Shown piece after piece: positions 2,074 through 62,534 of a stretch of DNA of 64,000 bases (the first letter of the stretch is position 1; each line of letters opens with the position of its first letter). The stretch lies in NCBI GenBank assembly GCA_033717875.1, contig JADDKJ010000002.1:2820-66819 (forward strand). The letters run 5' to 3'. This DNA comes from Gammaproteobacteria bacterium (GTDB lineage Bacteria > Pseudomonadota > Gammaproteobacteria > Ga0077554 > Ga007554). A program made the translations under genes and the position numbers. The notes under the pieces were generated by a model. That model made no database searches, had not been told where the DNA came from, and saw nothing but the letters and a program-made list of their open reading frames with translations.

Positions 2074-4653
2074 CTAGATCGTTCTCGCAACCTCGACGCG
2101 CTCGTAGACTTCGATCTGGTCGCCGACGCGCACATCGTTGTAGTCCTTGACACCGATACCGCATTCCGTGCCGGACCGGACCTCGCTCACGTCATCCTTG
2201 AAGCGGCGCAACGATTCGAGCTGGCCTTCGTAGATCACCACGTTGTCACGCAGCACGCGGATCGGGTTGTTGCGCTTCACCATGCCTTCCACTACCAGGC
2301 AACCGGCGATGGCGCCCAGCTTCGGCGAACGGAATACGTCGCGCACTTCGGCCAGACCGACGATCTGTTCCTTGATCTCGGGGGCGAGCATGCCGGAAAT
2401 GGACCGCTTCACCTCGTCAATGACATCATAGATGATACTGTAATAGTGCAGATCGATGCCCGCATCCGCCGCAAGCCGGCGCGCGCTGGCGTCGGCGCGC
2501 ACATTGAAGCCGACCATCACCGCCTGCGAAGCAATGGCGAGATTGACATCCGATTCATTGATGCCGCCCACGCCGCTGGCGATAACCTTGACCTGCACCT
2601 CGTCGGAGGACAGTCGCGTCAATGCCTCGCGCAGCGCCTCGACACTGCCCTGGACATCGGCCTTGACGACCAGATTCAGGGCGTGAACCTTGCCCTTCTC
2701 GATTTGCGAGAACACGTCTTCCAGTTTGGTCGCCTGCTGACGCGCCAGCTTCACGTCGCGGAATTTGCCTTGGCGGAACAGCGCGATCTCGCGCGCCTTG
2801 CGCTCCTCGGCCACCACCACGGCGGGATCGCCCGCATTGGGCGTGCCGGACAAACCGAGCACCACCACCGGCGTGGACGGCCCCGCCTCTTCGATATGCT
2901 TGCCGGCCTCGTCGAGCATGGCGCGCACGCGGCCGTATTCCTGACCGCTGAGCAGGATGTCGCCCTTGCGCAGCGTGCCGTTCTTCACCAGGATGGTGGC
3001 AACCGGGCCGCGCCCCTTGTCCAGGGTGGACTCGATCACCACACCGGACGCCGGAGAATCCTTGACGGCCGTCAGTTCCAGCACTTCGGCCTGCACCAGA
3101 ATGGCATCGAGCAACTCGTCGACACCCGCGCCAGTCTTGGCGGACACGTAAGCGAAAATATTCTCGCCGCCCCATTCCTCGGGAATCACGCCTTGCTGCA
3201 CGAGCTCCTGCTTGACGCGCTCGGCATCGGCGGCGGGCTTGTCGATCTTGTTGACGGCGACCACCAGCGGCACATTGCCCGCCTTGGCATGCTGAATGGC
3301 TTCCATGGTCTGCGGCATCACGCCGTCGTCGGCGGCCACCACCAGCACCACGATATCCGTGACCCTGGCGCCACGCGCGCGCATCGCGGTGAACGCCTCA
3401 TGGCCTGGCGTATCGAGGAAGGTGATCATGCCCTTGTCGGTTTCCACATGGTACGCGCCAATGTGCTGGGTAATGCCTCCCGCTTCGCCCGCCGCGACCT
3501 TGGTGCGGCGAATATAGTCGAGTAGCGAGGTCTTGCCGTGATCGACATGGCCCATGATGGTCACCACCGGGGCGCGCGTCACCTTCTCGCCCGTCACTTC
3601 CTCGGCCTTCGCCAATTCTTCTTCCAGGGCGCTCTCGCGCATCAAGCGGGGAGTGTGCCCCATTTCCTCCACGAGGATCGCCGCAGTATCCTGATCGAGC
3701 ACCTGGTTGATGGTGACCATGCTGCCCATTTTCATCAGGGCCTTGATCACCTCGACGGCCTTGACCGACATTTTCTGCGCCAGCTCGGCGACAGTGATCG
3801 TCTCCGGGATATTCACTTCGCGCACGATCGGCGCGGTGGGCTTTTCGAAACCATGCCTGGCGCCACCCGCCGCGAATGGAGCGGGCTTTTCCCTGACCTT
3901 CTTTCTGCGAAAACCGGTCTTTTCGGCGGCCACATGCAGTTCTTCGCGACCGTATTTGGTAACACGCTCTTCCTTCTCGCCGCGATGTTTGCCTTTTTTG
4001 GCGGCTTCCCGCTCCGCGATGGACTCTTCTTTCGCCCGAGGCGCCGCAGCGGGTGCAGCAGGAGCAACTTTGGGCTTGGTCTCGCGGACGGTCTTGCGCC
4101 GGGTTTCTTCCTCGGTCTTGCGCCGGGTCTCTTCCTCGGCCTTACGCTTGGCTTCCTGCTCCTCCTTGAGCCTTCTCTCCTGCTCGGCCTTTAGGCGCGC
4201 CGCCTCTTGCTCCCGGAGTTGCCGTTCCTCGATTTCCCGTTGTCGCACATCGTCCAGCACGGCGCGCTCTTCGGCCTCTTGACGGCCACGCTCGGCGAGG
4301 TGAGTTTCGAGCTTCGCCATTTCCTCGGCGGCGGCAATGCCGCGCTTGACCAGGGTGCGTCTGCCGCGCACTTCAACGTTGACCGTTTTGGTCTTGCCCG
4401 TCGAAGTCACCTGCCTCACTTCACTGACCGTTTTGCGCTTCACCGTCACCTTCTTGGGTTCGGCGACCGCCAGAGCCTCGCCTTCCACCCCATGTGACTG
4501 GCGCAAGTGCCGGAGCAAGAGCAATTTTTCCTTGTCGCTAATGGCCTCGCCTGCGCCTTTGACCGGCAAACCGGCCGCCCCTAACTGCGACAGCAGTTTC
4601 TCAACGGGGATGCCAACCGCGTTGGCAAATTGTTCAACTGTAACCTGCGACAT
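2074..4653 (-). CDS. infB: Translation initiation factor IF-2
   Basis: 872-aa ORF. N-terminus [25 protein letters not shown] at internal Met 4653. Lys/Glu/Arg-rich linker, GTPase motifs [16 protein letters not shown]...DTPGHEAF...NKIDK. Directly downstream of nusA. Confidence 0.95.
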
Positions 4654-22430: not shown

Positions 22431-22540
22431 AAAATGTAGGGCGGGTTAGCGTAGCGTAACCCGCCATGCCGCGCCGCAAGGCGCACCTTAAGGAATCGTT
22501 ACGCGACGGTTGGCGGGTTTAGCCCGCCCTACATTTTTTG
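22431..22540. repeat. Repeat family B (AAATGTAGGGCGGGTTA...TAACCCGCC REP-like element), complete palindromic copy in ahcY-metF spacer
   Basis: AAAATGTAGGGCGGGTTAGCGTAGCGTAACCCGCC...GGCGGGTTTAGCCCGCCCTACATTTTTT. Nested hairpins with an outer inverted repeat. Related copies at 1895-1990 (rbfA-infB spacer) and 30262-30378 (after epmB), sharing AAATGTAGGG(A/C)GGGT(T)A and CAAGCGTGCG(C/A)AGCACACAA. Confidence 0.65.
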
Positions 22541-57754: not shown

Positions 57755-58795
57755 ATGCCCGACCGCCTGAATGAACTCACCCGCTGGCTGCGTACCGATG
57801 CCGGCCTGCCCTCGTTCGAAATCGCTCCCGCCTCGTCGGACGCCAGTTTCCGCCGTTATTTCCGCGTCCGCTATGCCGATCAGAGCCGCATCGTCATGGA
57901 CGCCCCGCCGGACAAGGAAGATTGCCGCCCGTTCATTTCCGTGGCCCGCGCCTTCCATGCACTGGGCCTGAACGTCCCCGAAATACTGGAAATCAACCTG
58001 GATCAGGGGTTTTTGCTGCTGAGCGACCTGGGCGATCGCCAATATCTGAGCGAACTCAACGAAACCAGCGTTACTTCGCTGTATGGCGATGCCATGCACG
58101 CACTGCGCATGCTGCAACATCCGGCCGCCCGCCGCACCGGTCTGCTGCCTCCTTATGACCGCGCCTTGCTGCTGCGCGAGATGGCGCTGTTCCGTGACTG
58201 GTTCATGGAAAAGCATCTGGGACTTACGCCAACTCAGGCGTTGGACAGCGTATTCGACACCCTCGCCCGTTCGGCACTGGAACAACCGCAGGTATGGGTG
58301 CACCGCGATTACCACTCGCGCAACCTGATGATCACCGCGCACGGCAACCCCGGCATTCTCGACTTCCAGGACGCCGTCACCGGCCCCGTGACCTACGACC
58401 TGGTGTCGCTGCTGCGCGACTGCTACATCGCCTGGCCGCGCGAACAGGTGGAAAGCTGGGTTGAAGAGTATCACGGCAGAGCCCTGGAAGCCGGCATCAT
58501 CGAAGATGTGGGGACGGCGCAATTCCTGCGCTGGTTCGACCTGATGGGCGTGCAGCGCCACCTCAAGGCCATCGGCATCTTCGCCCGGCTCAACATCCGC
58601 GATGGCAAACCGGGCTACCTCAAGGATATTCCGCGCACGCTGGGATATGTGGCAGACGTCAGCAGCCGTTACCCGGAGCTGGACGGTTTGAGCAGGCTGA
58701 TTCAGGAAGAGGTGCTACCGAGGATGGCACTACCGGCGCAATACGGCTATCGCCTATTGCGTCCTACACGGACTGGTGAGCGCCCGGTTGACTGA
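57755..58795 (+). CDS. amgK: N-acetylmuramate/N-acetylglucosamine anomeric kinase AmgK-like (APH-family phosphotransferase)
   Basis: ORF 57443..58795. From Met 57755, MPDRLNELTRWLRTDAGLPSFEIAPASSDASFRRYFRVRYADQSRIVMDAPPDKEDCRPFISVARAF closely parallels Pseudomonas AmgK (...ASSDASFRRYFRW...VMDAPPPQEDCRPFV). Brenner motif HRDYHSRNLM and ILDFQDA. Divergent from lptD as in Pseudomonas. Confidence 0.85.
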   Translation: MPDRLNELTRWLRTDAGLPSFEIAPASSDASFRRYFRVRYADQSRIVMDAPPDKEDCRPFISVARAFHALGLNVPEILEINLDQGFLLLSDLGDRQYLSELNETSVTSLYGDAMHALRMLQHPAARRTGLLPPYDRALLLREMALFRDWFMEKHLGLTPTQALDSVFDTLARSALEQPQVWVHRDYHSRNLMITAHGNPGILDFQDAVTGPVTYDLVSLLRDCYIAWPREQVESWVEEYHGRALEAGIIEDVGTAQFLRWFDLMGVQRHLKAIGIFARLNIRDGKPGYLKDIPRTLGYVADVSSRYPELDGLSRLIQEEVLPRMALPAQYGYRLLRPTRTGERPVD

Positions 58796-58799
58796 ACTT

Positions 58800-59081
58800 T
58801 TATGCCGCTGACTCAAGCGGAACATCCCAGCCGGGGAACAGAAGAACAGCCGGATGGCATTTCAGGGCACGAGCGAGTACTTTGGCGCGCTCCACCCCAA
58901 GGTTGACGCGACCATTTTCAATGGCTGAAATGGTAGCCTGCGGAATACCGGTAAGCTCCGACAATTGATTTTGGCTCAGTTCTTGAAGCTCGCGAATAAT
59001 GCGTACAGATTCACCGACAGAAACTTCAATGCGTTTTTTAGCAGGGCGAAACTCTTTCATGCTACGGCCTCCGATAATCAT
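58800..59081 (-). CDS. HTH (XRE-family) antitoxin of a RelE/HigB-2-type TA pair
   Basis: 93 aa. ELSQNQLSELTGIPQATISAIENGRVNLGVERAKVLARAL helix-turn-helix. Overlaps by 20 nt the upstream toxin gene. Confidence 0.8.
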   Translation of the reverse strand: MIIGGRSMKEFRPAKKRIEVSVGESVRIIRELQELSQNQLSELTGIPQATISAIENGRVNLGVERAKVLARALKCHPAVLLFPGWDVPLESAA

Positions 59082-59346
59082 GCGGTGTAACCTGAATCAC
59101 CTGAACCAACAAAACGTCAGCGACAACCCGATAGATAACCCGCCATTGCAGCCCTAAACGAGAAGAGCGATAGCCCTTCCACTCACCTGATAAGGCCTCA
59201 TCGTGGAACCCTTTGATTGCGCGCAGCCCAGGCGGGCCGGAAATTGCGGCAACATCTTTCCACTTCTCATACCGCTTTAGCACCTCCTTCGGCACGCTAG
59301 CGGAGAGCTGTTTATCGACACGGCGGTGTTCTTCAATTCTCCACAT
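59062..59346 (-). CDS. RelE/ParE-superfamily toxin (HigB-2-like mRNA interferase)
   Basis: 94 aa. MWRIEEHRRVDKQL...GLRAIKGFHDEALSGEWKGYRSSRLGLQWRVIYRVVADVLLVQVIQVTPHDY matches RelE-like fold conservation. Toxin-first arrangement. Confidence 0.8.
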   Translation of the reverse strand: MWRIEEHRRVDKQLSASVPKEVLKRYEKWKDVAAISGPPGLRAIKGFHDEALSGEWKGYRSSRLGLQWRVIYRVVADVLLVQVIQVTPHDYRRP

Positions 59347-59540
59347 ACCAAATTATGCTTATATTATTTTTGATATGTCAAGGGGCGTGACTCTTAAGCG
59401 GTATGATGTCTTGTTTAACCGGCAGCACGTAGGGCGAAAAACCTGCTGGCATTGTGCCAGATGAGACAACAACCATTCGGCGCAATACGGCTATCGCCTA
59501 TTGCACCCTACGCGGGCTGCAGATACTTGTTGGATTGCGT

Positions 59541-60290
59541 CTAAACATATACGTTTCGGTCGTCTCGAGAATAAAGAACCGGAACTTGCTTTAAGCCAGA
59601 TCTTTCTAACAGCTGTTTCGCGGCTGCCGCGCACTCTTCTGTTGCCTTTGGCGACATAACCACGGCTTCGATAAGTACGTCCAATTGCACCGGCAACCAG
59701 ACGTTTTCTGGTGGGCTATCAGCGATATTGGGCCAGTGTACAATTCGTATTTCGTTTTCGAGGCTAAAGTGAAGATCTTTCCAGAAAAAGATACTCGGTG
59801 TTCCAAAATAGTCAATCCACTGTCCGCCCGCATGATCAAAATAGTTGACCAAAGAAATATCCAGGGGCCACTTTTCAATCGCTTCATCACACGCTCTTTC
59901 GAGCGCCGCTACAGTCGACTTAACCGCGACACCCGGTGACTTTCGGACATAGCCCTTCCACATTAGGTCGAAGTCAGTATCGCCCACACACCAGCAATTG
60001 ATATAGGTACGGAGCCGATCCCGCGCTCTCGCTTCGCGCTCATTTAGAACCTCATCGGAGTCAGTAACCTTTTCAATCCACTGTTCCATATCCACCAATT
60101 GACGGCGCGAGTATGTGCCTTCAAAGCGGTCTTCAAGCCGATCTGCCCTACATAGATACAATGATCGTGTATTCAAAAGAGATTCGAACTTATACCAGTC
60201 CATGTACCGCCATACGCTAGTCGACCGATCTTCGGGCAAGCAACACTTCGAATGCACGTCTCGCTTCAGGTTTATGTACTGGTCGCTCAT
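59541..60290 (-). CDS. Hypothetical protein, possibly DUF2971-like; low-GC, likely horizontally acquired
   Basis: 249 aa. GC content visibly lower (about 50%) than flanks. N-terminal WRYMDWYKFESLLNTRSLYLCRADRLEDRFEG resembles the DUF2971 pattern (Y.S...L...L....L..S....FND..E). Family assignment is tentative. Confidence 0.45.
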   Translation of the reverse strand: MSDQYINLKRDVHSKCCLPEDRSTSVWRYMDWYKFESLLNTRSLYLCRADRLEDRFEGTYSRRQLVDMEQWIEKVTDSDEVLNEREARARDRLRTYINCWCVGDTDFDLMWKGYVRKSPGVAVKSTVAALERACDEAIEKWPLDISLVNYFDHAGGQWIDYFGTPSIFFWKDLHFSLENEIRIVHWPNIADSPPENVWLPVQLDVLIEAVVMSPKATEECAAAAKQLLERSGLKQVPVLYSRDDRNVYV

Positions 60291-60536
60291 GTTAAGAAAT
60301 CCAAACGTGAATCAACCTCACTTTCGACGCAAAAAAAGGCGTCAATAGTGAAATCTAATCCGCATTTCTTTTGCTATATTTATGAATCTTCTACAGTGAA
60401 AAAATAAAAATCATCACTATCAAAAGAAGTTTTACTGCATGGCGTCACGATCCATCAAGCACCGTTTGCTGCGGGACCACCTTCTCCCGCTGGGAAAAGA
60501 AAACAGGCGGACATAAGATAAAGAGCGCCCAGCACA

Positions 60537-61937: not shown

Positions 61938-62243
61938 TCACGCTGCACGTGACAGGGGATGAACTTCCTTTTCCAGCCTGTCCTCAAGCGCCTCCAACGC
62001 CACTTCCATGTCATAGTGGGATTGGAGGTTGAGCCAAAACTGCGCCTCCATGTTGAAATATCGCCCAAGCCGCAATGCGGTATCGGCGGTGATCGCACGG
62101 CGGCCATGCACAATTTCATTGATGCGCCGGGGGGTGACTCCAATATCTTTTGCGAGCCGATACTGGCTGATCCCCAGAGGCTCCAGAAATTCCGCAAGGA
62201 GAATTTCGCCAGGATGAATGGGAGAAAAATCACGCTTTGCCAT
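61938..62243 (-). CDS. higA: HigA antitoxin (XRE HTH)
   Basis: 101 aa. IHPGEILLAEFLEPLGISQYRLAKDIGVTPRRINEIVHGRRAITADTALRLGRYFNMEAQFWLNLQSHYDME. Downstream of higB with 9-nt gap. Confidence 0.85.
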   Translation of the reverse strand: MAKRDFSPIHPGEILLAEFLEPLGISQYRLAKDIGVTPRRINEIVHGRRAITADTALRLGRYFNMEAQFWLNLQSHYDMEVALEALEDRLEKEVHPLSRAA

Positions 62244-62252
62244 AATGACCTC

Positions 62253-62534
62253 TCAATGGTAGTCGGCAATTTCGACGTCGTAAGCATCGCTGCCTTGCCA
62301 TACGAAACAGATCCGCCACTGCTTGTTGATGCGTATGCTGTATTGACCTTTTCTGTCGCCACGAAGCGCCTCCAGGTGATTCGACGGTGGAACACGGAGC
62401 GTTTCAAGAAGACCTGCGGCATTCAATATCTTAAGCTTCATGCTTGCTGCGCGCTGGATTGTTTGCGGCAACTTTGTCGAAAACCGGCCGTGGAAGAGCT
62501 TTTCCGTCTCTCGACATTTGAAGGATTTGATCAT
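62253..62534 (-). CDS. higB: HigB toxin (plasmid-maintenance killer protein, RelE/ParE superfamily)
   Basis: 93 aa. MIKSFKCRETEKLFHG...LEALRGDRKGQYSIRINKQWRICFVWQGSDAYDVEIADYH, canonical HigB. Confidence 0.85.
   Translation of the reverse strand: MIKSFKCRETEKLFHGRFSTKLPQTIQRAASMKLKILNAAGLLETLRVPPSNHLEALRGDRKGQYSIRINKQWRICFVWQGSDAYDVEIADYH

Follow-up and report, generated by a model that had tools for sequence, protein, structure and literature searches.

We examined the DNA directly downstream of an amgK-like gene in a 64-kb stretch of a gammaproteobacterial contig (JADDKJ010000002.1); the whole 64-kb stretch is referred to below as the window. At ~58.7-60.6 kb the window contains an islet with a toxin-antitoxin (TA) gene pair, one copy of a direct repeat on either side of this pair, and a gene for a protein of 249 amino acids (aa) with remote similarity to the DUF2971 family. 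A first-pass annotation, made from the window alone, had suggested that the islet arose by site-specific capture, with the end of amgK duplicated and murU perhaps displaced in the process. We compared the locus with the amgK loci of 80 relatives (L001 is the closest) and with metagenome loci that carry the core of the repeat (L081-L200). The features identified are as follows (REP and REPIN denote the repeat families described below).

57755..58795, plus strand: amgK-like gene for an anomeric MurNAc/GlcNAc kinase, 346 aa (PF01636 APH, NF045759 AmgK)
58734..58775, minus strand: REP singlet, repeat copy 1 (hairpin; 23-mer core common to metagenome stretches)
58800..59060, minus strand: gene for an XRE-family helix-turn-helix (HTH) antitoxin, 86 aa (PF01381 HTH_3, 8.3e-15)
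59062..59346, minus strand: gene for a RelE/StbE-type toxin, 94 aa (TIGR02385)
59352..59381, minus strand: sigma-70-like promoter of the TA operon (TTGACA-18-CATAAT, 11 of 12 matches)
59429..59511, no strand assigned: REPIN-like inverted REP doublet (left REP, 19-nt spacer, right REP)
59541..60290, minus strand: gene for a divergent DUF2971-superfamily / PADLOC PDC-S31 protein, 249 aa (profile, homologue and model evidence)
60291..60536, no strand assigned: AT-rich spacer, 246 bp, ~43% GC (composition)

The GC content is 43-53% over ~58.75-60.55 kb, versus 60-68% in both flanks, and the description of the stretch downstream of amgK as accessory, low-GC DNA is supported. The lower GC content of the 249-aa gene and the presence of the AT-rich spacer, both noted earlier, were confirmed. 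The repeats do bracket the TA pair, as had been reported, and they enclose this pair only; the low-GC DNA runs ~1 kb beyond them. No recombinase or integrase open reading frame (ORF) or domain was identified within 58.7-60.6 kb, and the TA genes are the only ORFs between the repeats. The AT-rich spacer (60291-60536) separates the stop of an aldehyde dehydrogenase gene from the start of the 249-aa gene, and the promoter of the latter presumably lies within it. A search for consensus promoters scored none in this spacer and Rfam gave no match to it; Rfam and tRNA scans were likewise without a match across the islet region.

The REP and REPIN copies and the end of amgK

The direct repeat had been placed at 58732-58769 and 59478-59515, with four mismatches. 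The repeat is real, but it starts at 58734 and is 42 nt long (58734-58775 and 59478-59519; 38 of 42 positions identical, four mismatches), with only three mismatches in a 38-nt core. None of 100 shuffles of the window gave two matches. On the minus strand, copy 1 reads GTAGGACGCAATA-GGCGATAGCCG-TATTGCGCC, with a GTAGG head at 58767, and both copies have the form GTAGG(A/G)(C/T)GCAATA-GGCGATAGCCG-TATTGCGCC, in which a hairpin with 9 bp in the stem and 11 nt in the loop comes after the head (GTAGGA at 58767, GTAGGG at 59511). Directly left of copy 2 is a decayed REP in inverted orientation (59429-59458, GTAGGGCGAAAAACCTGCTGGCATTGTGCC). Together with a 19-nt spacer and the right REP at 59478-59511, which is copy 2, it makes up the doublet; the identity between the two copies runs on to 59519. 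Hairpin folding, computed for DNA and compared with shuffled sequences, gave z = -3.1 for copy 1 and z = -2.9 for the doublet. Copy 2 folded alone was indistinguishable from shuffles (z = -0.7).

A 23-nt core of the repeat occurs in the window at 58738-58760 and 59482-59504. The exact core, GCAATACGGCTATCGCCTATTGC, is present in at least 120 metagenome stretches, which come from many samples and include many contigs per sample. Among the matches listed, the recurring context is a left REP (GTAGGGCGCAATAGCG..AGCGTATTGCGCC), a spacer of ~20 nt and a right REP of the form GG(C/T)GCAATACGGCTATCGCCTATTGC(G/A)CCCTAC; an inverted partner lies no more than 70 nt away in 71 of 125 copies, and 73 of 125 end in (A/G)CCCTAC. 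In ~11 of these loci, ORFs that open with MP(D/N)YRR start 30-400 nt from the core. Core-side ORFs in L182 and L098 match NF047646, the REP-associated tyrosine transposase (RAYT) family, with 204 and 189 bits (cutoff, 80 bits). The 150 ORFs nearest to REP copies in the listed matches gave hits to 155 Pfam families, none of which was matched by more than three ORFs. These 150 ORFs show no enrichment of TA genes beside REP copies, and no TA family is among their 25 largest Pfam families. Because the core is widespread, the GTAGG head stands beside a hairpin, inverted doublets recur and RAYT genes occur near copies, we conclude that the repeat is an element of a REP/REPIN family associated with RAYTs.

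As in other REP/REPIN and RAYT systems, the element is palindromic, though short and imperfect, and has a GTAG-type head; across the metagenome stretches it is found many times, either singly or as an inverted doublet. Its copies lie at gene ends or between genes, and RAYTs of the NF047646 type adjoin the same core. Unlike in those systems, one of the copies in the window lies inside an extended amgK ORF. A reading of the repeat as an integron attC site was dropped, as R' and R'' core sites are lacking and the GTAG head and RAYT association fit a REP. REP families are usually described as lineage-specific in their distribution. Here, in contrast, the core is base-for-base identical across at least 120 metagenome stretches of 31-69% GC, which is unusually broad and for now a curiosity. 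The core had no match in 2.9 M viral contigs, and an 86-nt REPIN consensus had none in the PLSDB plasmids.

Two minor observations concern the surroundings of the repeats. In many cases a REP copy precedes a ~21-nt motif, ACGRATTGCGYCTTACGCGTT, which is present once or twice (e.g., L098 at ~605-625, L116, L131 and L162), and a partial version of it (GGATTGCGTCTAAAC) is found at 59531-59545 of the window, overlapping the stop of the 249-aa gene. Apart from the two copies, a search of the window that allowed up to eight substitutions returned only the left-type REP in its decayed form and, at 22436, a GTAGGG palindrome unrelated to them. This palindrome (22436-22465, plus strand) has a different stem, GTAGGGCGGGTTAGCGTAGCGTAACCCGCC, and probably belongs to another REP family of the same genome.

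The amgK-like ORF matches PF01636 APH (1.3e-33), and its best NCBIfam match is NF045759 AmgK, at 298 bits against an equivalog cutoff of 550; positions 2-321 of the 324-position profile align to residues 3-318 of 346. Thus, the family profile ends at about residue 318-321. The AmgK of L001 has 93% protein identity to that of the window, and the DNA is ~90% identical over 1.6 kb. The alignment with the window amgK ends at 58728 and the sequences diverge from there on; the C-terminus is ...LPRMAADV* in L001 versus ...LPRMALPAQYGYRLLRPTRTGERPVD* in the window. Past the equivalent of Met321 there are 25 residues in the window protein versus -1 to 17 in 79 relatives, and the 23-nt core is absent from all 80 amgK loci searched. 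The codons from 58729 to the stop (58793-58795) come from the REP element and its flank, so that the native part of the gene ends at ~58728. The stop is four bases from that of the convergent antitoxin gene.

The repeat had also been described as the last 38 nt of amgK. This does not hold, as the ORF runs to 58795. The homology with L001 stops at 58728, the profile ends at residues 318-321 and the tail is the longest of all, and on these grounds the repeated 38-42 nt are a REP copy lying over the end of amgK and do not represent a duplication of native gene sequence. A REP copy has thus given this kinase of cell-wall recycling a new C-terminus.

The toxin-antitoxin operon and the history of the site

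The call of a RelE/HTH toxin-antitoxin pair was borne out. The antitoxin carries an HTH_3 domain (8e-15 in round figures), and the toxin (59062-59346) reaches TIGR02385 RelE_StbE by a narrow margin (30.4 bits versus a cutoff of 27.9); its scores on Pfam YafQ_toxin (18.8 bits) and HigB are below cutoff. The gene order, toxin then antitoxin, is higBA-like. The toxin stop, TAG, is followed after one base by the antitoxin ATG at 59060, which gives a protein of 86 aa and is preceded at a distance of 8 nt by GGAGG; from another possible start, at 59081, the protein would have 93 aa. Just upstream of the toxin start is a promoter (TTGACA-18-CATAAT, 59381-59352 on the minus strand) that agrees with the sigma-70 consensus at 11 of 12 positions. 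From these features the two genes appear to form an intact type II operon with a RelE/StbE-type toxin, an XRE-HTH antitoxin and a promoter of its own. By analogy with its family, the toxin may act by ribosome-dependent mRNA cleavage and be held in check by the antitoxin, which may also repress the promoter. A 14-nt inverted repeat (59267-59280 and 59393-59406, 93% complementary) straddles the toxin start and promoter region and could be an operator for the antitoxin. The pair resembles TA systems of the HigBA type and RelE-Xre pairs in its small RelE-superfamily toxin, its XRE-HTH antitoxin one base further on, its own promoter and its low-GC accessory context. It differs from them in that the toxin is marginal on TIGR02385 and falls below the Pfam cutoffs for YafQ and HigB.

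Directly downstream of amgK, L001 has a 189-nt stretch that is 92% identical to 58932-59119 of the window and takes in ~43 codons from the start of the antitoxin gene and ~19 from the end of the toxin gene. It is a decayed remnant of the same TA operon, in the same place and orientation. L001 lacks the 23-mer core, and its amgK end is free of the repeat even though the TA remnant is present; between amgK and the remnant there is a left-type REP with spacer that is 84% identical to 59426-59470 of the window. Because L001 holds the remnant at the same site, the TA pair was probably already there in the common ancestor of L001 and the window genome. The REP copies differ between the two genomes, which fits mobile REPs and not a scar of TA insertion, and the TA operon is probably older than the repeats around it.

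In L001, from 1609-2068 onward, the 3' end of rpoC/rpoB, genes that are absent from the window, comes directly after amgK and the TA remnant. Either the genome was rearranged at the TA/REP site, or this metagenome-assembled genome (MAG) was wrongly joined there.

We searched the window for murU by motif and by tblastn with the MurU of L006 (the marks of MurU are PF00483 and the N-terminal motif KAMILAAGRGERMRPLT). None was found anywhere in the 64 kb, which confirms its reported absence. In the relatives, murU starts 30-120 nt after amgK in ~35 of 80 and is displaced from it by 0.6-5.9 kb in 15; in the remaining ~30, including the closest three (L001-L003), it was not seen within the available flank (no more than 6 kb). 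The gaps between amgK and a displaced murU hold genes for Sel1-repeat, HDOD/tRNA-editing and OmpA-family proteins, Tag glycosylase, RlmJ and signal peptidase, all at native GC. Since L001-L003 also lack an adjacent murU and the 15 gaps are occupied by ordinary genes, the missing murU reflects gene-order variation in the lineage, and the suggestion that the islet displaced it is not upheld. The idea that the amgK-murU gap is a defence hotspot in the relatives was rejected for the same contents of the gaps. As a side observation, the amgK-murU "operon" is much less fixed in this clade (loci L007-L046) than in Pseudomonas.

The 249-aa protein and its neighborhood

The 249-aa protein matches the PADLOC profile PDC-S31 (PDLC04993; E value 1.5e-16, 58.4 bits) over profile positions 11-225 of 245. 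A database search returned 138 relatives from several phyla; most of the full-length ones have 244-258 aa, and where a name is given it is "hypothetical protein". An identical protein in NCBI (IDH49_01115, from a gammaproteobacterial MAG) is annotated from Met30, with 220 aa. The alignments of more than 60 homologues, each 247-249 aa long, begin near residue 3, and the start that gives 249 aa is therefore better supported than the public one.

The protein had been called "DUF2971-like". Remote homology to that family stands, while the protein itself does not pass the PF11185 threshold. Weak matches to PF11185 were obtained for 20 of 64 aligned homologues (best 3.8e-4), and each other family was matched by no more than two homologues. 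Searches of plasmids with tblastn identified proteins annotated by PGAP as DUF2971, with 27-31% identity over ~80-90% of the length and E values down to 2e-21. A profile of the family recovers 6,509 representative clusters at E values of 1e-10 or below, and 4 of 10 sampled second-tier matches (~1e-37) pass the PF11185 threshold. These profile and homologue links argue that the protein is a remote DUF2971 homologue that fails the formal PF11185 test.

The predicted structure of the 249-aa protein (pLDDT 92.6) has the fold of a DarT-like ADP-ribosyltransferase (ART). Across 64 homologues, E180, R48, Y29 and H174 do not vary, and at least 90% of the sequences have D at position 178. In the model, E178-N-E180 is at the start of a beta strand (180-185), as an ExE motif would be, and may represent a catalytic motif III of the ExE type. 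Comparison of the family profile with PDB sequences gave nothing meaningful. DUF2971 proteins have been described as ART-like and close to DarT (PMC12522546), and Aristaios, a single DUF2971 gene, protects Lactococcus with an abortive-infection phenotype (PMC11381338). The window gene and the plasmid-borne Aristaios are alike in being single genes for proteins of ~250-320 aa with an ART fold, DUF2971 homology, no partner gene and a suspected abortive-infection mode. They differ in that the window protein does not reach the PF11185 threshold and is part of a tight subfamily of its own, the one matched by PDC-S31. Unlike DarT of the DarTG system, a DNA thymidine ADP-ribosyltransferase, to which its identity is 11-18%, the window protein has no match to DarT (DUF4433) in Pfam or among PDB sequences, and there is no macrodomain antitoxin resembling DarG beside the window gene or the homologues examined.

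Between the gene and the TA operon lies the REPIN. Read on the minus strand, its left arm comes after the end of the 249-aa gene and resembles a terminator, with a hairpin and a T-run (59460-59436). Seven homologue contexts were all different from one another. The gene was found with small unknown ORFs beside purL, with a Schlafen/AlbA_2 gene, with a convergent Gp49/HTH pair, with an upstream gene that has an FGE-sulfatase domain (in a locus that ends at the contig end), with an insertion sequence element, two genes away from a HEPN/MNT pair, and, on a Bacillus plasmid, beside an AbiH gene. No conserved partner gene or macrodomain was identified in the homologue contexts examined. Given the REPIN, the terminator-like hairpin, the TA promoter and the differing contexts of homologues, the best explanation is that the 249-aa gene is a solitary unit, separate from the TA pair. 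The recurrence of TA modules of differing families nearby fits co-residence in accessory islets and not a fixed system.

Weighing of the readings of the locus

All parts of this mosaic locus are elements of known types, and we consider it likely that three independent accessory elements, the REPs, the TA operon and the PDC-S31 gene, lie side by side downstream of amgK. The "direct repeat" is two REP copies of a RAYT-associated family and not a target-site or att duplication. A singlet REP lies on the 3' end of amgK, with the ORF reading through it, and the other copy is the right arm of a REPIN that follows the 249-aa gene; the left arm of this REPIN is decayed and resembles an intrinsic terminator. 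The type II operon, with its RelE/StbE-like mRNA-interferase toxin followed by the XRE-HTH antitoxin, would be ancestral at the site. The solitary PDC-S31 gene would encode an abortive-infection effector that, on phage infection, uses NAD+ to ADP-ribosylate nucleic acid or protein.

Several results weigh against parts of this account. The window holds two good REP copies and one decayed copy, and no RAYT gene was found in its 64 kb, which is a further difference from known REP/REPIN and RAYT systems. None of the 80 relatives has an empty junction between amgK and the aldehyde dehydrogenase gene (the aldehyde dehydrogenase, HigBA and NmrA-like genes were searched for in all amgK loci, and none adjoins amgK); because no empty junction was found, we infer the order of insertion events. 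The 249-aa protein has no Pfam or NCBIfam match, even at E values up to 10. PDC-S31 is a phage defence candidate of which no mention was found in the literature searched. TM-scores of the model to DarT are only 0.4-0.5, and the putative catalytic residues were assigned from the sequence. TA modules neighbor the gene of the 249-aa family in three of eight contexts, which leaves a small probability of some functional link.

We give hardly any credence to the reading of the first-pass annotation, in which an addiction or defence islet integrated site-specifically at the amgK 3' end, with the 38 nt as attL and attR, and pushed murU off. Two same-orientation copies do bracket the TA pair within a low-GC stretch, and murU directly follows amgK in ~35 of the 80 relatives. 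However, the repeated sequence is not native to amgK and recurs beside RAYTs and in unrelated metagenome stretches, at least 120 in number. The amgK end of L001 lacks the core although the TA remnant is present, no ORF at 58.7-60.6 kb encodes an integrase or recombinase, the repeats do not bound the whole low-GC stretch, and the nearest relatives also lack an adjacent murU. What had been observed was largely real, and the central interpretation was wrong. A direct repeat around a small cassette can mimic an integration scar, and REP pairs taken as att sites lead to false "islands". It is improbable that the TA pair is instead a REPIN-bracketed cassette that enters or leaves by recombination between REP/REPIN copies. 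The copies are in direct orientation at both TA ends, and the left-type REP and spacer on the amgK side in L001 make an ancestral REPIN-TA-REPIN layout conceivable. Against this, there is no TA enrichment among the 150 ORFs nearest to REP copies, REP copies in one genome look alike whatever lies between them, and neither a circular or excised form nor a second REP-flanked copy of this TA pair was found. The more specific version, in which a REPIN doublet originally stood on each side of the TA pair, the two being nearly identical, and one half of the left doublet survives in the window and the other in L001, is quite improbable. If it were true, REPINs would be portable homology sites for the capture and loss of small cassettes such as TA modules, and RAYT-associated repeats would help to build accessory islets.

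The RelE/HTH pair and the DUF2971-like gene had also been proposed to act together as an abortive-infection module. The three genes are adjacent and on the same strand, and homologues of the 249-aa gene lie beside a Gp49 (HigB-like)/HTH pair in L204 and near HEPN/MNT genes in L207. A three-gene module is nevertheless very improbable, because the REPIN, the terminator-like hairpin and the near-consensus promoter separate the units, the neighboring TA families and their orientations vary between loci, five other contexts have no TA beside the gene, and L001 has the TA remnant without the 249-aa gene. It carries more weight, although we regard it as unlikely, that the 249-aa protein is not a defence enzyme and is, for example, an inactive ART-fold protein or one with an endogenous substrate. 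PDC-S31 is only a candidate, the motif I histidine is not evident, and some contexts are plain housekeeping neighborhoods. Invariant E180 and R48 and near-invariant D/E178 in 64 homologues argue instead for a selected active site, the distribution is patchy, in low-GC islets and on plasmids beside Abi genes, and a DUF2971 protein has already been shown by experiment to act as an antiphage system (PMC11381338). We therefore lean, with some reserve, toward a single-gene abortive-infection effector that may ADP-ribosylate its target in an NAD+-dependent manner. The locus ties PDC-S31 to the DUF2971 family, to which the experimentally shown antiphage gene Aristaios belongs, and the confidently modelled DarT-like fold suggests a concrete, testable mechanism for a large family of ~6,500 clusters (E values of 1e-10 or below). 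The PDC-S31 gene is the only part of the locus with some forward value.

A second TA pair is encoded at 61938-62534 on the minus strand and consists of HigB (PF05015, 61 bits) and a HigA-type HTH protein. It occupies another low-GC patch, just past the aldehyde dehydrogenase gene. L002 has a homologue of this pair (48-52% aa identity) upstream of amgK, at 2777-3351.

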